Positions 1,482 to 10,867 of a stretch of DNA of 24,000 nucleotides are shown here, one piece after another (positions within the stretch are counted from its first letter, which is position 1; every line of letters begins with the position of its first letter). Position numbers and translations under genes: made by a program. Source of the stretch: Alishewanella tabrizica (lineage in GTDB: Bacteria; Pseudomonadota; Gammaproteobacteria; Enterobacterales; Alteromonadaceae); contig NZ_BMYR01000015.1 of assembly GCF_014652375.1 (NCBI RefSeq), forward strand, positions 1 through 24,000, written 5' to 3'. The notes beneath the pieces were generated by a model. It was not told where the DNA came from. It made no database searches and worked only from the letters and a program-made list of their open reading frames with translations.

Positions 1482-2183
1482 TTAAATACTGCTTACCCAA
1501 TCCGGTAAAAACTCAATAGCCCATAGCTCTAACACTTTGTCAAAACCGCTAAAAATCATCAGCGCAATTAACAACAAAGCATAGCCAAGCAGTTTGCGGC
1601 CAAATTTACCTGAGGTGCGCAGTTTCGATAGTTTTATCCCTGCCGCATAACCAATGGCGACTAACGGTAAAGCGGTGCCTAGGCCAAAAGCTAACATAAC
1701 GGTAAATGACATCAGCATGCTTTGCCCAGTCGAGGCTAAGGCAATGGCAGCGCCCAAGGTTGGGCCAACGCAGGGTAGCCATACCAGCCCCAGCGAGCCT
1801 CCTACTACAAATTGAAATGCCGGATGATCAGTATTTTCGGTCACTTGCCCGCCAGAAGGTAAGCGACTGGTTAAGCGTGATAGCAACATCGAAAACTGCT
1901 GATTTAACCAATCAATACTCAAAACCAACCCCATGGCTAACATAAAATATGCCGCAAAGGTGCGCATAATCTCTGGCCCTAAACCGGCGCTGAGTAAGAG
2001 ATAGGTCAGTAAAGAGCCGCCTATAGCAAAGGTTAATGCCAAGCCTGCCGCTAAAAACCATACGCCGGTGCGCGAGGCGCGCATTGCCGAAGCGGTAACC
2101 GCAGGGATCATCGGTAGCACACAGGGTGATAGCAGGCTAAGTAAGCCTGCTAACAGTGCTAAGGGGATAGCGGTAAATTCCAT
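1482..2183 (-). CDS. ccdA: Cytochrome c biogenesis / thiol-disulfide electron transporter, CcdA (DsbD-beta) family membrane protein
   Basis: 233 aa and polytopic. It carries the two conserved Cys-Pro helices LSPCVLPMIP and WLPCVGPTLG typical of CcdA/DsbD. Its start is 2 nt after the stop of the upstream thioredoxin gene, indicating an operon. Confidence 0.85.
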   Translation of the reverse strand: MEFTAIPLALLAGLLSLLSPCVLPMIPAVTASAMRASRTGVWFLAAGLALTFAIGGSLLTYLLLSAGLGPEIMRTFAAYFMLAMGLVLSIDWLNQQFSMLLSRLTSRLPSGGQVTENTDHPAFQFVVGGSLGLVWLPCVGPTLGAAIALASTGQSMLMSFTVMLAFGLGTALPLVAIGYAAGIKLSKLRTSGKFGRKLLGYALLLIALMIFSGFDKVLELWAIEFLPDWVSSI

Positions 2184-2185
2184 CG

Positions 2186-2614
2186 TTAATCCGCTTTCTT
2201 GTCATGTTCAGCTATTGCTGCGAATACAACTTTTTCTTTGGTTTGCGCTACGGTTAACCACAGTTGCTCTTCACCACGGTATAGCACTAAGGTAGATTGC
2301 CGCGGTGCTTTAAAATAGGTTACCCAGTCTTTTTGGTTGTCAAAATCCACTTCTAGCACCAGTAGTTCGCTTTGCGGGTTAGCGGCAAGGTAATCATTTA
2401 ATACGTTATGTTGCTTGCGGCAGGTCGGGCACCATGGCGCGTAGACATCAATCAGAATCAGCTTGCCCTCAGCTTGTGCTTGGCGGAATACTTCTTCTGT
2501 AAAGGGCTGTTTATGCTTAGCCAAATGCTCAGTTGCAGCGGTCGCTGGGTTAAAGAAGAAAATCGCGCCGATAATGGCCAGTACAGCAAAGGTAGCAGTC
2601 AGTAGTGTTTTCAT
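2186..2614 (-). CDS. Periplasmic (signal peptide or anchor) thioredoxin-fold protein with a WCPTC active site
   Basis: 142 aa. The N-terminal hydrophobic segment is MKTLLTATFAVLAIIGAIFFF..ATA, followed by APWCPTCRKQ (a CxxC thioredoxin motif). GAGG lies 5 nt upstream of the ATG. The gene sits immediately upstream of ccdA. Confidence 0.85.
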   Translation of the reverse strand: MKTLLTATFAVLAIIGAIFFFNPATAATEHLAKHKQPFTEEVFRQAQAEGKLILIDVYAPWCPTCRKQHNVLNDYLAANPQSELLVLEVDFDNQKDWVTYFKAPRQSTLVLYRGEEQLWLTVAQTKEKVVFAAIAEHDKKAD

Positions 2615-2781: not shown

Positions 2782-3702
2782 TTAGCTTTGGCTGCTGCGA
2801 TATTCGCCAGGCGAAAGCCCTAATTGTTGTTTAAAAAAACGGATAAAGGCGGTAGCCGACTGATAACCCACAGCGTCGGCAATATGATCTAAACTGTGCT
2901 CGGTATGGATCAGCAAGTAGCGGCTTTTTTGCAGGCGCAACTGGTCTAATAATGATTTAGCCGTCATCCCCATAATTTTATGGCAGCGCTCGGCAAAAGC
3001 GCTTTTTGATAAATAGGCCAGCTCGGCCATATTGTCTACTGTCCAATTGGCTTCTGGTTTATCCATTACGGCCAACACTACACGTCTTAATGCTGTATCT
3101 TGTAATGCTGCCAATAGCCCTTGGCTGATCTGTTCATCGGTTAGCACCTGACGCAATAAATGCAGCACAACGACATCACTTAAGCGGCTAATTGCCGCTT
3201 GGTAACCCGGCTGGCGCAGCGCGGCTTCTTCTTGGATCAATGCGACTAGTGGTGCTAAACGCCCCGATTGCTGGTTTGCTGGCAAGTGAATATAGTCGGG
3301 CATAATTTGCAAGACGTTTGCTGTGAGCGGGGAGTGAATGGCAATGTCGTAGCAAACCAAGCCGCGTTCAATATGTTCAGGCACGCAGAAGTTTTGCAAT
3401 GTTACCGGCGTGCTTTGCGCGGTAACCGGTTGGTCGCTGAGCCAATGGCGTAAACCATGGCTAAAAAAAATCGCATCACCGGCATGCAGTTGTATCTGTT
3501 CAGACAGGCGTCCGGGGATCGCCATCCATAAACTGCCTTGCGTCACAATATGTAAAGCCGCCTTATCAGATTTATCACTTAGCAAGTTCCAGTTATCACA
3601 AAAACCTGATTCAAAATGCAACGCCGATCCAAATGCCAGCTGGGCTAAAAGCTGATCTAAGGCTTCCGGTGTTTCGGTTGATAAGGGCGTTGTTTTGGTC
3701 AT
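2782..3702 (-). CDS. AraC/XylS-family transcriptional regulator with an N-terminal cupin-like domain
   Basis: 306 aa. The C-terminal double helix-turn-helix (WTVDNMAELAYLSKSAFAERCHKIMGMTAKSLLDQLRLQKSRYLL...IADAVGYQSATAFIRFFKQQLGLSPGEYR) is classic AraC. The N-terminus (HIVTQGSLWM...GDAIFFSHGLRHWL) looks cupin-like. It is divergent from the 3854-7509 operon. Confidence 0.9.
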   Translation of the reverse strand: MTKTTPLSTETPEALDQLLAQLAFGSALHFESGFCDNWNLLSDKSDKAALHIVTQGSLWMAIPGRLSEQIQLHAGDAIFFSHGLRHWLSDQPVTAQSTPVTLQNFCVPEHIERGLVCYDIAIHSPLTANVLQIMPDYIHLPANQQSGRLAPLVALIQEEAALRQPGYQAAISRLSDVVVLHLLRQVLTDEQISQGLLAALQDTALRRVVLAVMDKPEANWTVDNMAELAYLSKSAFAERCHKIMGMTAKSLLDQLRLQKSRYLLIHTEHSLDHIADAVGYQSATAFIRFFKQQLGLSPGEYRSSQS

Positions 3703-3853
3703 TGTGGGTTATTTTCCAGCTTTGTACACTTATTCAATAAGTTAGTCTAAAGTTTATCAAAGGCGTTGCAAAGTATCAGTTGCCAAAAGTACGTATTGTC
3801 ACTTGCATCGTCTATCTTTGCAGCAATTGCTCTCGCTTAACAAGGGTTAAAAC

Positions 3854-4351
3854 ATGCTAAAGCCAATTCTGGTGGAAAATCGCCTGCAATTAGCCTTTAT
3901 AGACACTATTTTGCAGCAGGTAAACACGGTTGATTACCAACAGGCGTTTCCTCTTGCAGGTGCGCCAACTATTGGTAAGCATATTCGGCATGTACTTGGG
4001 CATTATGCGCAATTACAACAGGCGGTAACTACTGGGGAAGTCGATTATCGGCAGCGGCAACGCGACAGGCTAGTGGAAACTAACCCCTTGGCGGCGCTGG
4101 GCTTGCTACAGCAGCAGCTGGATTGGCTGGAACGCTTAGCGCAGCTAAATACTAACCCTCATTTGCGCTATCAGTGTGCGGAAGGCGAGGGAACAACCAG
4201 TTTATTGCGTGAACTGGATTTTGTTGCCAGCCATACAGTGCATCATCTGGCGTTATTAAACATCTTGTTACAGCAGTTGGGTTATCTCTTGCCTGAGACG
4301 GCAGGTATGCATAGTTCTACCTTAGCGTATCTTCAGCCATGTGCACCTTAA
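3854..4351 (+). CDS. DinB-superfamily (DinB_2-like) four-helix-bundle metalloprotein
   Basis: 165 aa. IGKHIRHVLGHY near the N-terminus and SHTVHHLALL near the C-terminus fit the His-triad pattern of DinB-like proteins. AAGGG lies 8 nt upstream of the ATG. The 3' end overlaps the next gene by 13 nt (ccATGTGCACCTTAA). Confidence 0.6.
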   Translation: MLKPILVENRLQLAFIDTILQQVNTVDYQQAFPLAGAPTIGKHIRHVLGHYAQLQQAVTTGEVDYRQRQRDRLVETNPLAALGLLQQQLDWLERLAQLNTNPHLRYQCAEGEGTTSLLRELDFVASHTVHHLALLNILLQQLGYLLPETAGMHSSTLAYLQPCAP

Positions 4352-5949
4352 GTTGGCAGTATCAAGCCGACGGTTTGCATTTAGTGTTTAACCGTGACGA
4401 GCAAGTCACTCGGCCAATAGCGTTATTGCCACAGACGGTGACCGAGCGCGGCATTGCGGCCATGATGCCGATAGATCCGCAAGGTGGTGGTACTTGGCTG
4501 GCAGTGAATGAACGCGGGCAAGTGTGGTGTTTGTTAAATGACTATGCGTCGTTAAAGAGCAAGCCTGCGGCAGGGGGCAGAAGCCGTGGTTTACTGGTTA
4601 AGCAATTGGCGCATTGCGCCAACCGCCAACAGCAAGATGCCATAATGCAGCAAGATAAACTGCAGGGCTATGCCCCTTTTAACCTGCTGTTATTTGCTAA
4701 TTGGCAAGAGCCTGAGCAATGGCATTGGGATGGGCAGCAATTAAAACAGTATTTTGCGGTATGTTCACCTGTGTCGAGTTCTGGTCGTTGGCCTAGGCTA
4801 ATACCTGCCTTACGGCGCTGGTATTGGCGCGCCAAGGTATCGCCTGCCACCACGGCTGCACAGCTGTTGGAGATACAGCGTACCGCTAAGCCGATAAATA
4901 GTTTTATCGGTATTGCTATGCAGCGGGCAAGCACCCAGACCGTTAGCACCAGCTATGTCCATTTGCATGCACAGGGCGCTTCCTTGAAATATTGGGCTGG
5001 GCATCCCCGGCAGCAAAGCCAGCAAGCCACGTGCGAAGTGGCTCTGTCCTGGTCGCAAACATGCCCGCCACGTTATAGTGGGTTTCAGCCGCTGGCGTTA
5101 CCTGCTGTACTGGCAAAAACCTTACCCCAAGTGGCGGCCAAGTTACCAATATGGCAAATGCGCTGTTTGCAGCACTGCTTGGCCGAGCGACAACTTAACC
5201 AGGCATTGCGGCAGCTGAGTCAGCAGCCAGATCAGCATTTTTGTGATGGGGCTTTGCAGTATTTAGGCGTAATACCGCAGGTTATTGCTTGCCGTTGGCC
5301 TGCAGCACATAGCCGTCCGGTGTTTGTTTGTAACCATCCAACCGGTGGGCTGGATGGTTTATTGCTTATTGCACTGTTGCAAAAGCGTTATCCTGATCTG
5401 CAAGTGATCGCCAATAATGTGCTGCAGGTTGTTGCGCCATTGGCCTCTTTTATTCTGCCAGTACCAGTGTTTGCCAAGCCTGCCGCGGCAATACCGCAAT
5501 TAACGACCGCTTTTGCGTCTAACTGCCCGTTATTAATTTTCCCTGCGGGGAGAACCGGGCGGCGAAATGCACAGCAGCAGATTGATGATGGGATCTGGGC
5601 CAAATTGGCGGTAACGCTTAGTCTACGCGCACAGCGCACTCTGACTTTGCTGCATATCGATAGCCATAATTCGCGCTTATTTTACGCTATAGCCACGCTG
5701 CGTAATGCGCTACATATCACCACTAATCTTGAAATGTTTTTACTTAGCCGCGAAATGCTGAAGCCTGCAGTCAAGCAGCCTAGAATTTTTGTCGATATTC
5801 CAATGCATCCAATAGAACTGGAAGCTTTGGCAGACTCAGATTGGCAACGTGCACAGCGTTTAAAACAACGCGGTATGCAATTGCCTGTTATTTATAAGGA
5901 GCAGCAAGATGCCGCAGGCTATACCTCTTGCAGTCGACGTACCCGCTGA
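4339..5949 (+). CDS. Fusion protein: N-terminal NRDE/TANGO2-family domain plus C-terminal lysolipid (PlsC/GlsA/OlsA-like) acyltransferase domain
   Basis: 536-aa uninterrupted ORF. N-terminal motifs are MC(2)TL, FNRDEQ, GGGTWLAVNERG, LLND, GRSRGLLV and YAPFNLLLF, which is the NRDE family signature (PF05742-type). C-terminal motifs are VFVCNHPTGGLDGLLL (an H-x5-D variant of the acyltransferase block I) and LLIFPAGRTGRR (an FP(E/A)G block). These resemble the acyltransferases encoded next to OlsB-like GNATs. Confidence 0.8.
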   Translation: MCTLSWQYQADGLHLVFNRDEQVTRPIALLPQTVTERGIAAMMPIDPQGGGTWLAVNERGQVWCLLNDYASLKSKPAAGGRSRGLLVKQLAHCANRQQQDAIMQQDKLQGYAPFNLLLFANWQEPEQWHWDGQQLKQYFAVCSPVSSSGRWPRLIPALRRWYWRAKVSPATTAAQLLEIQRTAKPINSFIGIAMQRASTQTVSTSYVHLHAQGASLKYWAGHPRQQSQQATCEVALSWSQTCPPRYSGFQPLALPAVLAKTLPQVAAKLPIWQMRCLQHCLAERQLNQALRQLSQQPDQHFCDGALQYLGVIPQVIACRWPAAHSRPVFVCNHPTGGLDGLLLIALLQKRYPDLQVIANNVLQVVAPLASFILPVPVFAKPAAAIPQLTTAFASNCPLLIFPAGRTGRRNAQQQIDDGIWAKLAVTLSLRAQRTLTLLHIDSHNSRLFYAIATLRNALHITTNLEMFLLSREMLKPAVKQPRIFVDIPMHPIELEALADSDWQRAQRLKQRGMQLPVIYKEQQDAAGYTSCSRRTR

Positions 5950-6811
5950 GCATATCCAAGCGGAGTTACAGCAGTTAACGCCACTGGCGCAGTTTCGGGG
6001 GTTACAGATTTTTAGCGCTGATGCCCAGCAGATCCCCCACACTATGCAGCAAATTGGTTTGATCCGTGAGGCGGTGTTTCGGCAGGCGGGGGCAGGGCGC
6101 AATTTACCGCGCGATTTAGACGCACTCGATTATGCTGAACCGGCTTATCAGCAACTGGTTGTATGGGACCCACAGCGTTTGCAGCTGGTAGCCTTGTACC
6201 GTTATCAATTAGGTTGGCTGGCGGCCCAGCATGGCCAGCACATTTTGCGAACCAGTCAGTTATTTACCTATAGCAAGGCGTTTACCGAGCAGGTATTGCC
6301 TTATGCCATCGAGCTGGGGCGCTCGGTGGTTAACCCCGCCGCGAAAGCTAGCACCTTAGGTTTTTTTGCGCTCTGGCTTGGCCTAGGGGCGTTGTTAGTT
6401 CGCCACCCGCAGCTGCAATACTTTTTTGGCAATGTTACGCTTTATCCACAACTTGGCCAGGCCGCTATGCAGTTGATCGTGCAGTATTGTCAGCAGCTGT
6501 ATCCGTCTCCCTCACCGATGCTACAAGCCAAGCCTGAACTGTGTTACAAGGCAGCGATGTTAGCGGTTGATGCAACATTGCGGCAAGCCAGTGCCGAACA
6601 ACGGGTTAAACATTTACAGGATCTGCTTAAACCTTTGGCGTGCCGTATTCCCCCCGTGTTGCAGTCTTATCTCAGTGTGGGGAATGCGATCTGGTTTGAT
6701 GATGTCGCGTTGGATCATGACTTTGGCGGTGCTTATGAACAAAGCATCATAGTGCCCTTGGCGGCGTTAAGTAGCAGCTTTCGGCAACGTTTTCTGGAGT
6801 GTCATCTTTAA
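5909..6811 (+). CDS. GNAT-fold N-acyltransferase of the OlsB/GlsB type (Acetyltransf_5; often mis-annotated as 'putative hemolysin'); a putative N-acyl amino acid synthase
   Basis: 300 aa. AAGGAG lies 7 nt upstream of the ATG. The gene overlaps the upstream gene by 41 nt. IGLIREAVFRQAGAGRNLPRDLDALDYAEPAYQQLVVWD and ELGRSVVNP resemble the OlsB-like lyso-aminolipid synthase family. Confidence 0.7.
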   Translation: MPQAIPLAVDVPAEHIQAELQQLTPLAQFRGLQIFSADAQQIPHTMQQIGLIREAVFRQAGAGRNLPRDLDALDYAEPAYQQLVVWDPQRLQLVALYRYQLGWLAAQHGQHILRTSQLFTYSKAFTEQVLPYAIELGRSVVNPAAKASTLGFFALWLGLGALLVRHPQLQYFFGNVTLYPQLGQAAMQLIVQYCQQLYPSPSPMLQAKPELCYKAAMLAVDATLRQASAEQRVKHLQDLLKPLACRIPPVLQSYLSVGNAIWFDDVALDHDFGGAYEQSIIVPLAALSSSFRQRFLECHL

Positions 6812-6897
6812 CATCGTGATCGATTTATTCCGCTCGCATTGACAAGGCCCGCGTTAGCACTGAGACTGCGTTTATTGTTGAGTCGCATTCAGGAACT

Positions 6898-7509
6898 ATG
6901 TACATGATCAGTTACGTTCAGCAACATCGCTTAACACTGCAATTAGGTAATACCTTACCTGCTGCTCAATCGTTATTAGTGTTAGCGGGGCAGCCAGAAC
7001 TGGCAAACGCTTTGGCCCAAAATCCCACGGCGGCCGAGCTGTTAACCGCTATTGAGCAAGCCTATCAAGACGGTTACGAGCAGCAAGCCTCTACCGAATT
7101 TGAGTTACAAGGCATCGCCTTTGCAGGTTATGGTGATCCTTTATTGCATTTAGAGACTTTGAGTGAGGTGTTACCTGCGTTTAAAGCCCAGCGCCATGGC
7201 GTGCCAGTGACCTTGGTGACCTATGGTTTAGTGTCTGCGGCTGAGGCTGAAACGTTGTGCCAGCAGTTGCTAGCGCTCGAAGTAGAGCGGCTTGAGGTAT
7301 TTTTACCCGCTGCCACTCCCCCTGCGTATCAACACGCCGTGCAGCCTTTGCAGTATGGTTTTGCCGAGGTATGCCAGTTTATTCATACCGCAGCAGATGC
7401 AGGTTTATATGTCAGTTGTTTTGCTAATGCGCCAGTAAAAGAAATTGCGGCCATACGCGCGTTAGCGCGCGAGCTTGGCGCGCGTGAGTTGTTAATAAAG
7501 GATATTTAG
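6898..7509 (+). CDS. Hypothetical protein. It resembles a radical-SAM/TIM-barrel segment (GIAFAGYGDPLLHLETL) but has no CxxxCxxC cluster motif
   Basis: 203-aa ORF. AGGAA at 6891-6895 is better spaced for the second ATG at 6904 (MISYV...). The G-x-G-(E/D)-P-L-L motif recalls the SAM-binding GGE motif of radical SAM enzymes. Only three isolated Cys residues are present. It is the last gene of the operon. Confidence 0.6.
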   Translation: MYMISYVQQHRLTLQLGNTLPAAQSLLVLAGQPELANALAQNPTAAELLTAIEQAYQDGYEQQASTEFELQGIAFAGYGDPLLHLETLSEVLPAFKAQRHGVPVTLVTYGLVSAAEAETLCQQLLALEVERLEVFLPAATPPAYQHAVQPLQYGFAEVCQFIHTAADAGLYVSCFANAPVKEIAAIRALARELGARELLIKDI

Positions 7510-7538
7510 TGCTACAGGAGATAGGTGCTCGGAGCTTT

Positions 7539-8744
7539 TTACTGTGCAGTGTTTAACACTGCGATATTACGCCCGGCTTTTTTCGCGGCGTATAAGGCTT
7601 CATCGGCCCGTTTTAGTAGGGCCATTGGTGCTTCGGTTTTCTGTTTGATACAACAGCCTAAGCTAATGGTAACGGTCACGGTTTTTTCACCCGCGCTGCG
7701 GCCACGTTGTTGTTTACCGTTATCCGCTTGGCTGGGGCGATTAGGTTTGCGGATCACCAGCGGGTATTCTGCTACCGCCAGCCGTACCTCTTCGAGTTTT
7801 TCTTCTAAGCGTTCAACATCGTTGTGGTTAAACACCAGCGTAAACTCTTCTCCACCGTAACGATAGGCGGTGAGTCCTTTTATTTGGCTTAACAGCGATC
7901 CCAACAGTTTTAGTACCTGGTCCCCCACATCATGGCCATAGGTGTCGTTAAACTTTTTAAAGTGATCAACATCCAGCATACATACTGCGCTGCGGCGGCC
8001 TAAACGGTTTAAATGTGACATAAGCGCGCGGCGTTGCGGCAATTGCGTTAGCTCGTCTATATAGGCTAAATGCAGCATTTGTAAGGCAAGTGTCAATAAT
8101 ATGGCCAAGGTAGCGGCAATTATTGCCCAGCCAGCCAATGCCAGATTGTGGCTATATTGAATACTTACTAAGGTGGCAAGCCAGACGGCAAATTGGCCCC
8201 ATTGCGCCGGATGCCTGGGGGCTAAATTAATGCTGATTAACCAAAGTCCCGCAATAATGGTGCAAAACCACGCATGTAACCACGTAAAGTGCTGGCTACC
8301 GGGTAGGGTATTAAACACGATGGGCGGCAATTGCGCGGCAGTAAGCCATGTGCTTAGTGGCAATACCAAGCTTAGCAACAAGAGTGCGGGGCCGCTTAAT
8401 AACAGTAATAGTCCGGCCGGTTTAGTCATAAGTGGTTTGGGTAGCAGGGCCAGTGCGAGCATCATGCTCGCACTGAGCAGTGGCAGTACCGTAAGATAAT
8501 TTATAGGGCTATCGGCTATGAGTACGCGGCTAGATTGATAATGTAACACCGCGAAATGGCTGGCTAAGAGAACGATCCAATACACCCATTCTGTTTGTCG
8601 CATTAATAAAGCCAACCCTAATACCGTTGCTAGTGCTAGGTAGGCGGTGCCGGGAAAAGGTAATAACGTAAATACGGCCAAATGCGGATAAAATCCCAAG
8701 GCAATCAACAACAATACGACAGGTAAGAGGATAATAGCAGGCAA
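7539..8744 (-). CDS. Membrane-anchored diguanylate cyclase (multi-TM N-terminal domain plus GGDEF domain with a GGEEF motif)
   Basis: 401 aa with about 8 hydrophobic helices, then DELTQLPQRRAL...DVDHFKKFNDTYGHDVGD...RYGGEEF...RADEALYAAKKAGRN. The start is TTG with GAGG 5 nt upstream. I see no RxxD I-site just before GGEEF. There is a basic insertion of roughly 15 aa (RKPNRPSQADNGKQQRGRSAGE) before the TISLG strand. Confidence 0.85.
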   Translation of the reverse strand: MPAIILLPVVLLLIALGFYPHLAVFTLLPFPGTAYLALATVLGLALLMRQTEWVYWIVLLASHFAVLHYQSSRVLIADSPINYLTVLPLLSASMMLALALLPKPLMTKPAGLLLLLSGPALLLLSLVLPLSTWLTAAQLPPIVFNTLPGSQHFTWLHAWFCTIIAGLWLISINLAPRHPAQWGQFAVWLATLVSIQYSHNLALAGWAIIAATLAILLTLALQMLHLAYIDELTQLPQRRALMSHLNRLGRRSAVCMLDVDHFKKFNDTYGHDVGDQVLKLLGSLLSQIKGLTAYRYGGEEFTLVFNHNDVERLEEKLEEVRLAVAEYPLVIRKPNRPSQADNGKQQRGRSAGEKTVTVTISLGCCIKQKTEAPMALLKRADEALYAAKKAGRNIAVLNTAQ

Positions 8745-8941: not shown

Positions 8942-10867
8942 GTGAACGCACTTGTTAGCTTTTTATCTACTTTATGCCTGTTAGGGACGCAGAATCGCCT
9001 GTGGAAGCTAGGCGCAGTGTTGGTATTTTTAGGGGTAATAACGGGGTGTGCTTCGGTATCGGTAGATACGGTAGATAGTCGCGATTACGTAAAGCAGCGG
9101 CGTGGTGATGTGCTCACTACGGGTGAACTTAGCCAATATACTGGCGTAGTATTGCAAATTTTAGGGCTGGATGAAAAAAGCTGCCAGCGCCAAGCTTCAC
9201 AATGTGCTGATATGTTAAGTACTGCCATGGGATTAACCACCGAGCAGCGTTTGTCTACCATGGCCGAGCTGTGGTTACATCAAGCCTTATGGTATGGCAA
9301 GCCAAGACAAAAAGCGTTATTGGCAGAGTTAGATGCCTATCTGATGAGTGCGCGTTATGCTTATGCTTATCTGTTTTACTCTGGTGTAGCGCCTTACGAG
9401 CGCTTATTTGCAGATCGGCAAACGCAAGTGCGTGATTATTATAATTTTGCTGTTCAGCAAGCGGCCACCTTATTGTTTGCTCAAGAGCAGCGGCGTTGGC
9501 TATCTGAATCGACCACGGTGTTGCACACGGATAAGTGGCAGTTACGCAGTTTATTGCAGCATCAACGCTTTCGAGAACAGGGTTTACCCGAGCAATTGTT
9601 GCCGGCGAATAATTGGTCTTTTCGGGGATTACGTAATCAATATCGGCGCGATGGTTTAGGGGCTGAATTGGTCGCGATAGGAAAAAGCAGCCAACGTTGG
9701 CAAAGCGAGCAGGGCTTTAGTGAGCTACCGGTACCGGTTGTTACGGCGTTATTAAGTTTTGGTGGCGAGACCTTAGAAGAGGTATTACGCACGAATCAAG
9801 CAACGTTACATGTGTTGGATCCTCTGCAGCAACGCGACGTAAAGATTGCCGGCAATCCGGTACCCTTAGCCGCAAATTTTACTGCGGGCTATGGCTTGTG
9901 GTTAGCCCGTTCCGATTTTTCCCGCCAAGCGTTTTGGAATTTAATGGGCACCCGTGATGCCTTAGCCGAGCCGCACTTGTTCTTAATGCAACCGTACGAT
10001 CCCGATCGCAAAATTATTGTCATGTTGCATGGCATTGCTAGCAGCCCCGAAGCGTGGGTCAATACGGCGAATGAGGTATTAGGCGATGATACCCTGCGCG
10101 AAAATTATCAGGTATGGCAGTTATATTATCCTACCAATTTACCGCTGATCATAAATGTACAAAGTATTCGGCAAAGCATCCATCAAGCCCTACAGCATTT
10201 TGACCCGGCGGGCAGTGCGGCCGCTTCGCAAGATATGGTATTAATTGGCCACAGTATGGGCGGCTTATTGTCGCGCTTGTTGGTGTCGAATTCGGGTGAA
10301 CAGGTGCTACAGCGGATTTTAGCGCAGCGGCATATGTCGGTTGAGCGCAAAGCCGTATTTTTCGAACGTTTTCATCAAGATCTTACCTTTAATGCGCTGC
10401 CGGGTGTTACCCGAGCTATTTTTGTGGCGGCGCCACATCGCGGTACCAGTGTGGCTGATAATCGCCTAGCCCGTTGGTTGGCGGGGTTAATTACCTTACC
10501 CGTAGCGGTATTAGAGCGCTTTGCCCAAGCGGCTGAGTTATTGGCCGATCCTGATGATGCCGAATCGACCAAGGTAGTGCGTTTTACCAGTATCGAAAAT
10601 CTGAGTGATAAAGATGGTTTTATTATCGCGGCGGCAGATTTACCCATTAGCCCTGCTGTGCGTTACCACTCTATTATTGGTGTTGAACAACCCGCGCTAC
10701 CCATTACTGAACAATCGGATGGTGTCGTTCCTTACTTAAGTGCGCATTTGGAGGGGGCTGAATCGGAAATGATTATTCGTTCGGGCCACAGTGTACAAGA
10801 AACGTCAGCCGCTATTTTAGAAATACGACGTATTCTGCATCAGCATTTGGTGGAGCTACCAAATTAA
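8942..10867 (+). CDS. Lipoprotein with a C-terminal alpha/beta-hydrolase (lipase/esterase-like) domain and a ~340-aa N-terminal domain of unknown function
   Basis: 641 aa. GTG start with AGGAA 4 nt upstream. Lipobox LGVITG-C at about residue 35. The hydrolase part shows VMLHGIASSPEAW (oxyanion region) and the nucleophile elbow LIGHSMGGLLSR, with late SDGVVP and GHSV as candidate Asp and His. Confidence 0.75.
   Translation: MNALVSFLSTLCLLGTQNRLWKLGAVLVFLGVITGCASVSVDTVDSRDYVKQRRGDVLTTGELSQYTGVVLQILGLDEKSCQRQASQCADMLSTAMGLTTEQRLSTMAELWLHQALWYGKPRQKALLAELDAYLMSARYAYAYLFYSGVAPYERLFADRQTQVRDYYNFAVQQAATLLFAQEQRRWLSESTTVLHTDKWQLRSLLQHQRFREQGLPEQLLPANNWSFRGLRNQYRRDGLGAELVAIGKSSQRWQSEQGFSELPVPVVTALLSFGGETLEEVLRTNQATLHVLDPLQQRDVKIAGNPVPLAANFTAGYGLWLARSDFSRQAFWNLMGTRDALAEPHLFLMQPYDPDRKIIVMLHGIASSPEAWVNTANEVLGDDTLRENYQVWQLYYPTNLPLIINVQSIRQSIHQALQHFDPAGSAAASQDMVLIGHSMGGLLSRLLVSNSGEQVLQRILAQRHMSVERKAVFFERFHQDLTFNALPGVTRAIFVAAPHRGTSVADNRLARWLAGLITLPVAVLERFAQAAELLADPDDAESTKVVRFTSIENLSDKDGFIIAAADLPISPAVRYHSIIGVEQPALPITEQSDGVVPYLSAHLEGAESEMIIRSGHSVQETSAAILEIRRILHQHLVELPN

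Follow-up and report, generated by a model that had tools for sequence, protein, structure and literature searches.

One open reading frame (ORF) in the stretch of Alishewanella tabrizica DNA analysed here (24,000 nucleotides of contig NZ_BMYR01000015.1, called the window below) encodes a protein in which an NRDE domain, the domain of human TANGO2, is joined to a lysolipid O-acyltransferase domain. We show that this ORF specifies a genuine two-domain enzyme and that it is the middle gene of a coupled cassette, lying between a DinB-like gene and a gene for a GlsB-like N-acyltransferase. The cassette is shown, in turn, to be a compacted form of a widespread gene cluster in which a DinB-NRDE gene pair accompanies an aminolipid synthase (OlsF, or OlsB plus OlsA). 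As to what the NRDE domain does, we tentatively favour, at a probability of about 0.4, a reading in which Cys2 would form an acyl-enzyme that serves the attached acyltransferase.

The fusion is an aminolipid synthase with an unprecedented accessory domain. What is new beyond the fusion is that its NRDE domain has many standalone relatives, which form a large subfamily with it and whose genes have a DinB-like gene upstream and often lie near an aminolipid synthase. A preliminary description of this DNA had called the domain architecture unfamiliar, and for the literature this holds: full-text searches found no paper on the fusion, on the DinB-NRDE pair or on its link to aminolipid synthases, and nothing relevant on aminolipids in Alishewanella or on TANGO2 in gene-neighbourhood or fusion analyses. 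For the databases it does not hold, as the product is already present, at 100% identity, as an Alishewanella tabrizica 'NRDE family protein'.

Structure of the fusion protein

The ORF has no possible in-frame start upstream of its ATG. Both domains are recognised by Pfam above the gathering cut-offs: the TANGO2 family PF05742 matches residues 1-123 with 54.6 bits (E 2.3e-14; cut-off 22.6 bits), which bears out the earlier assignment of the N-terminal half to the NRDE family, and Acyltransf_2 (PF19576) matches residues 257-497 with 110.6 bits (E 8.2e-32; cut-off 27 bits). The PF05742 match is confined to profile positions 1-128 of 257; in the alignments of relatives the whole domain (residues about 1-232) is conserved, with invariant columns reaching Y218. 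All of the motifs first listed for this 536-aa ORF are present, namely Met1-Cys2, NRDE (18-21), GGTWL (50-54), SRGLLV (82-87) and FNLL (114-117) in the NRDE domain, and NHPTGGLDG (332-340) and FPAGRTGRR (401-409) in the acyltransferase domain.

An AlphaFold2 (AF2) model of the fusion, built on 25 homologues, has a mean predicted local distance difference test score (pLDDT) of 90.3 and a predicted template-modelling score (pTM) of 0.89. Because of this pTM and the structured linker between the domains (Table 1), the two domains are predicted to occupy fixed positions relative to each other. The possibility, raised earlier, that an internal Met in the segment LPIWQMRCLQ gives rise to a separate acyltransferase product found no support: this residue is Met274, and a start there would cut into a domain whose Pfam match begins at residue 257. 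Homologues that consist of the acyltransferase only are about 300 aa long and cover roughly the last half of the fusion.

Table 1. Features of the cassette and of the neighbouring part of the window
Feature	Position	Strand	Size, basis and remarks
DsbD_TM/CcdA-like and thioredoxin genes	1482-2614	-	233 aa and 142 aa; directly 3' of the AraC/Cupin_6 regulator
AraC-family regulator (Cupin_6 + HTH_18; weakly RclR-like)	2782..3702	-	divergent from the cassette
DinB/YfiT-fold protein, partner of the NRDE domain	3854..4351	+	165 aa; weak Pfam DinB_2/DinB matches, AF2, Foldseek
NRDE/TANGO2::lyso-aminolipid O-acyltransferase fusion ORF	4339..5949	+	536 aa, ATG to TGA
NRDE/TANGO2 (Cys-Ntn fold) domain	4339..5037	+	residues 1-233; Pfam, invariant columns, Foldseek
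Linker, variable yet structured	5038..5103	+	residues about 234-255; low conservation in alignment, pLDDT 84-91
Acyltransf_2 (GlsA / OlsF N-terminal type) O-acyltransferase domain	5104..5892	+	Pfam, NCBIfam, catalytic block, Foldseek
AAGGAG Shine-Dalgarno and ATG of the GlsB-like gene	5896-5901 and 5909-5911	+	inside the C-terminal coding part of the fusion; sequence reading
GlsB / OlsF C-terminal-type amino acid N-acyltransferase	5909..6811	+	300 aa; Pfam Acetyltransf_5, NCBIfam
ORF without Pfam match	6898-7509	+	203 aa; sub-threshold match to small radical-SAM families (TIGR04038, 55.7 bits vs 129.7)
GGDEF diguanylate cyclase	7539-8744	-	domain match split in two; Pfam/NCBIfam
641-aa protein with alpha/beta-hydrolase region	8942-10867	+	hydrolase region at residues about 356-623, after a long unannotated N-terminal part; Pfam/NCBIfam

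The NRDE domain and its match to human TANGO2

Among 25 fused homologues, R19, D20 and E21 are invariant and M1 and C2 are at least 90% conserved. When standalone NRDE proteins are added (39 sequences), C2, R19, D20 and E21 are all invariant, as are R25, N67, S82-R83-G84 and R159. A Cys directly after the initiator Met is compatible with removal of that Met.

The NRDE half was modelled as an alpha-beta-beta-alpha fold of the N-terminal nucleophile (Ntn) type, resembling TANGO2. In a Foldseek search of the PDB its best matches were the human TANGO2 structures 8sv7 (E 4e-10; TM 0.63 on the target, about 14% identity) and 9bwa (E values to 2.5e-9), with the bacterial NRDE protein CV2077 (3gvz) next in rank. 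Below these came, in order, acyl-CoA:isopenicillin N acyltransferase (2x1d), penicillin V acylase, many bile salt hydrolases and acid ceramidase. These last are Cys-Ntn acyl enzymes that act on acyl-CoA or on amide-linked hydrophobic acyl groups, and their sequence similarity to the fused NRDE domain is undetectable.

The human protein and the fused domain are alike in their Met-Cys start and their NRDE motif. To our knowledge human TANGO2 has neither a DinB partner nor a fused acyltransferase. In a HMMER alignment with 8sv7, residues N18, R19, D20 and E21 fall on human N25, R26, D27 and E28, and R25, N67, R83 and G84 fall on human R32, N75, R88 and G89; C2 was equated with human C2 through its N-terminal position. 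The putative Ntn site of human TANGO2 consists of C2, N25, R26, D27, N75, N157 and K166 and its anion site of R32, K56 and R88, and in the human crystal Met1 is invisible, with Cys2 the first ordered residue (PMC13044924). K56 of the human anion triad is not kept in the fused domain, which has Q48 at this place. Judging by spacing and conservation, in a half of the domain that cannot be aligned by sequence, S148 and R159 probably stand in for human N157 and K166.

In searches of the PDB sequences, the NRDE half found TANGO2 only at E 0.09 as a single sequence and at E 0.008 as a profile, and it took the comparison of folds to bring out the match. The fused domain is a member of a divergent NRDE subfamily, and since the profile reaches human TANGO2 only at this E value, conclusions can be carried over to the human protein only by inference.

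The acyltransferase domain and the GlsB-like gene

The C-terminal half of the fusion scores 154.8 bits against the NCBIfam GlsA family (NF053697; equivalog cut-off 260) and matches positions 6-260 of the OlsF profile (NF052615) with 108.7 bits. The ORF downstream scores 188.9 bits against GlsB (cut-off 300) and matches positions 285-569 of the OlsF profile with 156.7 bits, in agreement with the earlier view that the fusion lies in an aminolipid-type operon. Unlike in OlsF, the O- and N-acyltransferase domains are encoded by two overlapping ORFs, and their OlsF scores of 108.7 and 156.7 bits lie below the equivalog cut-off of 620. As the NCBIfam scores are below the equivalog cut-offs, the sequence assigns the kind of enzyme, which is clear (GlsA/OlsF N-terminal type, not GlsA itself), whereas the scores do not decide between glycine and ornithine or lysine as the head group.

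In the same 25 fused homologues, residues N332, H333, P334, G336, G340, F401, G404 and R408 are invariant and D339 and T406 are at least 90% conserved. The spacing of the catalytic block is H-x5-D, compared with the classical H-x4-D, and Foldseek matched this half to the squash glycerol-3-phosphate acyltransferase 1k30. A GlsB-like gene follows the fusion in most fused loci with enough downstream sequence.

A GlsB-like enzyme carries out the first step of aminolipid synthesis, in which an amino acid is N-acylated with a 3-hydroxy fatty acid; an Acyltransf_2 domain then esterifies a second fatty acid onto the 3-hydroxyl to give an acyloxyacyl aminolipid. In OlsF (Serratia proteamaculans, Flavobacterium johnsoniae), the N-terminal half corresponds to the C-terminal domain of the fusion and the C-terminal half to the downstream gene, and the same correspondence holds for GlsA and GlsB, respectively, of Bacteroides thetaiotaomicron. 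Both families have the same two-step chemistry as is expected for the cassette and, unlike the fusion, are without an NRDE domain as reviewed (PMC12971839). That 2026 review gives the acyl donors of OlsF-type enzymes as undetermined, and DinB, ATP-grasp and DoxX do not occur in its text (PMC12971839).

The DinB-like partner and coupling of the three genes

The DinB-like protein, absent from the preliminary description, is strictly co-conserved with NRDE. Its Pfam DinB and DinB_2 scores lie below the gathering cut-offs. Its AF2 model (pLDDT 92.6) has a four-helix bundle fold that Foldseek matches, at TM 0.6-0.7, to YfiT (1rxq), YizA, YjoA and mycothiol-dependent maleylpyruvate isomerase. Invariant residues are H43, R45, H46, Y65, R68, R70, R119, E120, H127, H130 and H131. 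The pattern of histidines (H43/H46 and H127/H130/H131) fits the His-rich metal site of the family, and the protein is predicted on this ground to be a metalloprotein.

The stop codon of the DinB-like gene overlaps the start of the fusion by 13 nt, and the GlsB-like start precedes the stop of the fusion with an overlap of 41 nt, its AAGGAG sequence ending seven bases ahead of the ATG. Because of these two overlaps and the embedded Shine-Dalgarno sequence, the DinB-like gene, the fusion and the GlsB-like gene constitute a translationally coupled operon. The fusion has a conserved tail (...YKEQQDA..., ...YKEQQDAAGYTSCSRR..., window 5891-5949) that coincides with the AAGGAG, the ATG and the first codons of the GlsB-like gene. 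Since these start signals lie in the same letters, the conservation of the tail probably results from dual coding rather than from protein function.

Distribution of the fusion

A search of 5.8 billion proteins found about 40 homologues of 523-556 aa (one of 589 aa), most with both Pfam domains. A second scan covered one genome per species (roughly 185,000 species genomes) and returned 65 loci, 35 of which have the NRDE and acyltransferase domains in one uninterrupted ORF (in 35 other species genomes, at identities from 96% down to about 28%). The fusion architecture is therefore rare, at 35 of roughly 185,000 species genomes. An assembly frameshift at the junction, a concern raised when the ORF was first described, is ruled out by the single uninterrupted ORF in the 35 other genomes.

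Fused loci occur in the Gammaproteobacteria (Alishewanella, Alkalimonas, Arsukibacterium, Aliidiomarina/Idiomarina, Saccharospirillum, Salinispirillum and Natronospirillum), in Balneolales/Cyclonatronaceae and in Spirochaetaceae, three phyla in all, and come from both isolates and metagenome-assembled genomes (MAGs). The taxa and MAGs concerned have almost only alkaline or soda-lake names (Alkalimonas, Natronospirillum, Cyclonatronaceae; loci L001-L035), and the sample series CSSed, B1Sed, T3Sed, DLM and PBR18 are presumably soda-lake samples as well. This suggests a habitat-linked horizontal spread of the fusion. In a rough neighbour-joining tree the fused domains and four unfused relatives lie on one side and the standalone forms with an SVCMHR motif on the other, a topology that would fit a single fusion event, or a few, with subsequent spread among bacteria of alkaline habitats.

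The DinB-like gene is found 5' of the fusion in the gammaproteobacterial loci, in all spirochaete loci but L033, and in one Cyclonatronaceae locus; it was not detected in six other fused loci of the Balneolales type, among them L027. The fused protein of L027 (4921-6543, a Balneolales MAG) is the single variant with NRDD in place of NRDE, and hydrogenase maturation genes lie upstream of it.

Two related loci depart from the usual architecture. Natronospirillum operosum G-116 (L036:5443-6903) has a 486-aa DinB::Acyltransf_2 ORF without an NRDE domain, followed by a GlsB-like gene; in this second, independent fusion it is the DinB partner that is tied to the acyltransferase. In a Natronospiraceae MAG (L038:5416-6849), the acyltransferase ORF begins with about 200 additional aa, which show faint traces of an NRDE domain but neither a Met-Cys start nor an NRDE motif, and the DinB gene is still 5' of it; this extension looks like a decaying NRDE domain.

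Standalone NRDE proteins and their gene neighbourhoods

When a profile of the fused NRDE domain was searched against 1.84 billion representative proteins, it gave 6853 matches, of which 1706 have E values below 1e-30. In the ranking, the fused forms are followed directly by a large group of standalone proteins (235-265 aa) that align with the fused domain end to end. Their gene context was sampled by six look-ups and by an 80-locus metagenome scan with the pattern S[VPI]CMHRxDA, which covers only the standalone subfamily with that motif; the neighbours were scored with hidden Markov models built from the first loci.

A DinB-like gene lies directly 5' of the NRDE gene in 58 of the 67 unfused metagenomic loci with at least 500 nt of upstream sequence. 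An OlsF-type synthase was found within 6 kb in 9 of the 22 loci that extend at least 3 kb on both sides, and about half of the long loci have an aminolipid synthase of one type or the other (OlsF, or a pair of OlsB-like and OlsA-like genes). The chance expectation for a single-copy gene in a genome of about 4 Mb is about 0.3%, so the enrichment of aminolipid synthases near the DinB-NRDE pair is far above chance. The preliminary description had taken the fusion as Rosetta-stone evidence for an acyl- or lipid-linked function, and this argument is strengthened by the unfused NRDE genes that adjoin OlsF or OlsB/OlsA synthases.

Other recurrent neighbours are a DedA/VTT protein together with an ATP-grasp-like protein, a YHS (seleno)protein-type domain, DoxX and extracytoplasmic function (ECF) sigma factors; DoxX ORFs clear of the NRDE gene were found in about a dozen of roughly 30 long loci. 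In L144:3974-9350, and also in L110, L138 and L071:1803-3182, the DinB-NRDE pair lies 3' of an OlsB-like and an OlsA-like gene. It is followed by a single 887-aa protein made up of an alpha/beta hydrolase, a DedA/UptA-like membrane part and an ATP-grasp-like part, for which a role as ligase/flippase of lipid head groups is conceivable. No protein has yet been identified as the ATP-dependent taurine transferase of ornithine lipids (PMC12971839).

Alignments of the standalone, DinB-partnered NRDE proteins have the motifs H-R-S-H, S-V-C-M-H-R and G-x-P-C in common, and these might together make up a Cys/His metal site. In the fused forms the residues are lost, the window protein having Q-R-T-A and A-M-Q-R (residues about 180-196, window 4876-4926).

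The Vibrio cholerae operon

The unfused arrangement can be seen in Vibrio cholerae, where the gene order in assembly GCA_015796535.1 (L152:3656-8946) is DedA/VTT, ATP-grasp-like (378 aa), DinB-like (180 aa), NRDE (248 aa), YHS (148 aa) and OlsF (581 aa). VCA0649 to VCA0646 are a published four-gene operon, in which VCA0646 is a functional OlsF (ornithine lipid synthase) induced by low salt (PMC12186959, PLoS One 2025). By gene order, VCA0649 would then be the DinB-like protein, VCA0648 the NRDE protein and VCA0647 the YHS protein. As in the cassette, the order is DinB-like, NRDE and then a synthase with Acyltransf_2 and Acetyltransf_5 domains. In V. cholerae, however, the proteins are separate, YHS lies between, and the O- and N-acyltransferase domains are joined as OlsF, while in the cassette NRDE is joined to the O-acyltransferase and the N-acyltransferase is encoded by a separate gene.

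The same genes have been studied in another connection. Work from the Bassler laboratory found that vca0646-0649, called four genes of unknown function, are co-expressed and activated by HapR, and that overexpression of vca0646 plus vca0647 leads to cell death while deletion of the operon is without effect (PMC11573629, PNAS 2024). Neither V. cholerae paper identifies the NRDE or the DinB gene as such (PMC11573629, PMC12186959), and the OlsF paper makes no mention of NRDE, VCA0647 or VCA0648 (PMC12186959).

What does the NRDE domain do?

We propose that Cys2, exposed once Met1 has been removed, would act as the N-terminal nucleophile of the NRDE domain and would take a fatty acyl group from acyl-CoA or acyl-acyl carrier protein (acyl-ACP), giving an S-acyl enzyme as in acyl-CoA:isopenicillin N acyltransferase. 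The S-acyl domain would then supply, select or edit the chain for the attached lysolipid acyltransferase. The DinB-like partner might handle the thiol part of the donor, a guess prompted by its characterised relatives, which bind small thiols at the metal site. The logic would be that of E. coli Aas, a 2-acylglycerophosphoethanolamine acyltransferase fused to an acyl-ACP synthetase. There, too, a lysolipid acyltransferase is joined to a domain that prepares the acyl donor, but the partner is an ATP-dependent adenylating enzyme unrelated to NRDE.

Several lines of evidence point in this direction. Residues of the putative catalytic set are kept in both halves across the fused relatives. The NRDE::acyltransferase and DinB::acyltransferase fusions and the confidently packed model argue for joint action with the acyltransferase, and an acyl donor is suggested because the closest fold match outside TANGO2 uses acyl-CoA. 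Human TANGO2 binds acyl-CoA via its NRDE pocket, and its loss raises lysophospholipids and lowers phospholipids (PMC11867700, PMC13044924). The reaction type disturbed by this loss, lysolipid acylation, is that of the fusion partner, which argues again for an acyl donor. The active- and anion-site residues also occur in humans, who lack aminolipids of this kind, and this speaks for a universal substrate, acyl-CoA for instance. The proposal would, moreover, fill a vacant place in the pathway, that of the undetermined acyl donors of OlsF-type enzymes (PMC12971839).

Other observations weigh against the acyl-enzyme proposal. Most OlsF and GlsA genes have no NRDE neighbour, as in the spirochaete loci L039-L062, which have only the acyltransferase and GlsB, and the NRDE domain has been deleted (L036) or has decayed (L038) while the acyltransferase was kept. 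The characterised fold matches other than isopenicillin N acyltransferase are amidases. PlsC-like acyltransferases normally use acyl-ACP or acyl-CoA directly, and we know of no precedent for a relay to them from a protein Cys. That the fusion is to an O- rather than an N-acyltransferase may simply follow gene order, the acyltransferase being the N-terminal half of OlsF. The cell death caused by overexpression in V. cholerae, the only phenotype tested, requires neither vca0648 nor vca0649 (PMC11573629), and VCA0646 alone gives ornithine lipid in E. coli, a host without NRDE proteins (PMC12971839, PMC12186959). Since the synthase can work in such a host, NRDE is an accessory to acyl transfer, which it would tune, and is not required for it.

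Perhaps, then, the NRDE domain acts on a product rather than on a donor. This main rival, which we regard as possible though doubtful, holds that it is a lipid amidase or esterase, working like bile salt hydrolase, acid ceramidase or NAAA on a product or intermediate of the pathway, such as the N-acyl-amino-acid amide made by GlsB/OlsB; the purpose could be proofreading, turnover, head-group exchange, or a deacylation-reacylation cycle with the attached acyltransferase. Most characterised fold matches do cut amide bonds, mostly of lipid-like or hydrophobic acyl groups, and bile salt hydrolase, which cuts the N-acyl-glycine or N-acyl-taurine bond, can also pass the acyl group on to other amines. 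The residues of the putative catalytic set are all invariant, which speaks for catalysis rather than mere binding, and synthesis itself runs without NRDE. The occurrence of DinB-NRDE beside two kinds of synthase (OlsF and OlsB/OlsA) points to a common product as much as to a common donor, and the ATP-grasp ligase and DedA flippase-like protein that recur nearby hint at head-group tailoring. A hydrolase fused to the synthase of its own substrate, however, risks a futile cycle, and it is difficult to see why an aminolipid amidase should share its active- and anion-site residues with humans, who lack aminolipids, or why about half of the long DinB-NRDE loci should have no aminolipid synthase within 6 kb.

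A second alternative, in our judgement improbable, is that DinB and NRDE form a thiol or redox-stress module that processes a small thiol conjugate, the tie to the acyltransferase being one of co-regulation under membrane stress. Analogues would be the pair of EgtB and EgtC, of which the former contains a DinB domain and the latter is a Cys-Ntn amidohydrolase, and the pairs of S-transferase and conjugate amidase. The YfiT/mycothiol-isomerase fold of the DinB-like protein, with histidines in the metal-site pattern of the family, agrees with such a module, as do the recurrent neighbours (YHS (seleno)protein-type, DoxX, ECF sigma factor and thioredoxin genes) and the RclR-like regulator, thioredoxin and DsbD_TM genes that adjoin the cassette in the window. 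In some loci a lipid synthase is missing, and two ATP-grasp ligases occur together with a multi-helix membrane protein of 412 aa that Pfam does not match. Co-regulation does not account well for the NRDE::acyltransferase and DinB::acyltransferase fusions and the packed two-domain model, which indicate joint action with the acyltransferase, or for aminolipid synthases near the pair far above chance, and no thiol-biosynthesis gene was identified.

It is very improbable that the domain is a haem-binding or trafficking module with no part in acyl chemistry. Haem binding has been published for TANGO2 proteins and for HtpA (SO0126) of Shewanella oneidensis, also a bacterial NRDE/DUF833 member and assigned to haem trafficking (PMC10470608). 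The HtpA gene, however, adjoins a metal transporter in its genome context and not DinB or lipid genes, whereas the fusion partner and neighbours in the cassette are lipid enzymes and the conserved neighbourhood has no haem or cytochrome gene; haem binding by TANGO2 is nonspecific according to a 2026 crystal-structure paper (PMC13044924). Hardly credible, finally, is the view that faulty assembly or annotation produced the fusion, or that it is a chance result of gene order, neutral and with an inert NRDE half: NRDE and OlsF are adjacent in relatives, so that loss of the sequence between could join them, and NRDE has decayed in one lineage, but isolates and MAGs that are independent of one another have an uninterrupted ORF of 523-556 aa (28-96% identity), which retains Cys2 and the NRDE motif apart from one NRDD variant, and the linker is structured (pTM 0.89).

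Neighbouring genes in the window

The regulator divergent from the cassette matches Cupin_6 (E 7.6e-33) and HTH_18 (E 8.4e-21) in Pfam and scores 98 bits against RclR in NCBIfam, far under the cut-off of 400. An AraC-family regulator lies 5' of the cassette in the Alishewanella, Alkalimonas, Arsukibacterium and Idiomarina loci only, and its position suggests that it may regulate the cassette. In these loci the regulator, DsbD_TM/CcdA-like and thioredoxin genes are syntenic with the cassette, and a thioredoxin gene also lies 5' of the DinB-NRDE pair in the unrelated loci L067-L068. A scan of positions 3600-7700 for promoters and terminators gave nothing above shuffled expectation. The ORF that follows the GlsB-like gene is kept 3' of the cassette in the closest relatives, L002 and L003, only.

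Implications

In humans, TANGO2 deficiency causes severe metabolic disease, and what the protein does biochemically is disputed, with a haem chaperone, an acyl-CoA binder and a Cys-Ntn hydrolase all proposed. Three independent comparative signals (the NRDE::acyltransferase fusion, the DinB::acyltransferase fusion and the DinB-NRDE-aminolipid-synthase neighbourhood) now point to fatty-acyl handling at lysolipid acylation. How far might this extend? In the widest form of the acyl-enzyme proposal, which we think unlikely, NRDE/TANGO2 proteins from bacteria to human mitochondria would be Cys-Ntn acyl-transfer enzymes that form S-acyl-Cys2 from acyl-CoA or acyl-ACP and feed or edit lysolipid acyltransferases, with the DinB-fold partner of the bacterial forms handling the thiol carrier. 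If this were true, the soda-lake fusion would be a natural 'complex in one chain', the build-up of lysophospholipids on TANGO2 loss would be explained, and the dispute between lipid and haem functions would be settled.

For bacteria, the analysis identifies two unstudied accessory proteins of OlsF-type aminolipid synthesis and gives names to two 'unknown function' genes of a quorum-sensing-controlled V. cholerae operon (PMC11573629). It offers a concrete, testable role in lipid acylation for a disputed family, and with it two tractable bacterial systems, the three-gene soda-lake cassette and V. cholerae vca0646-0649, for which genetics already exist.

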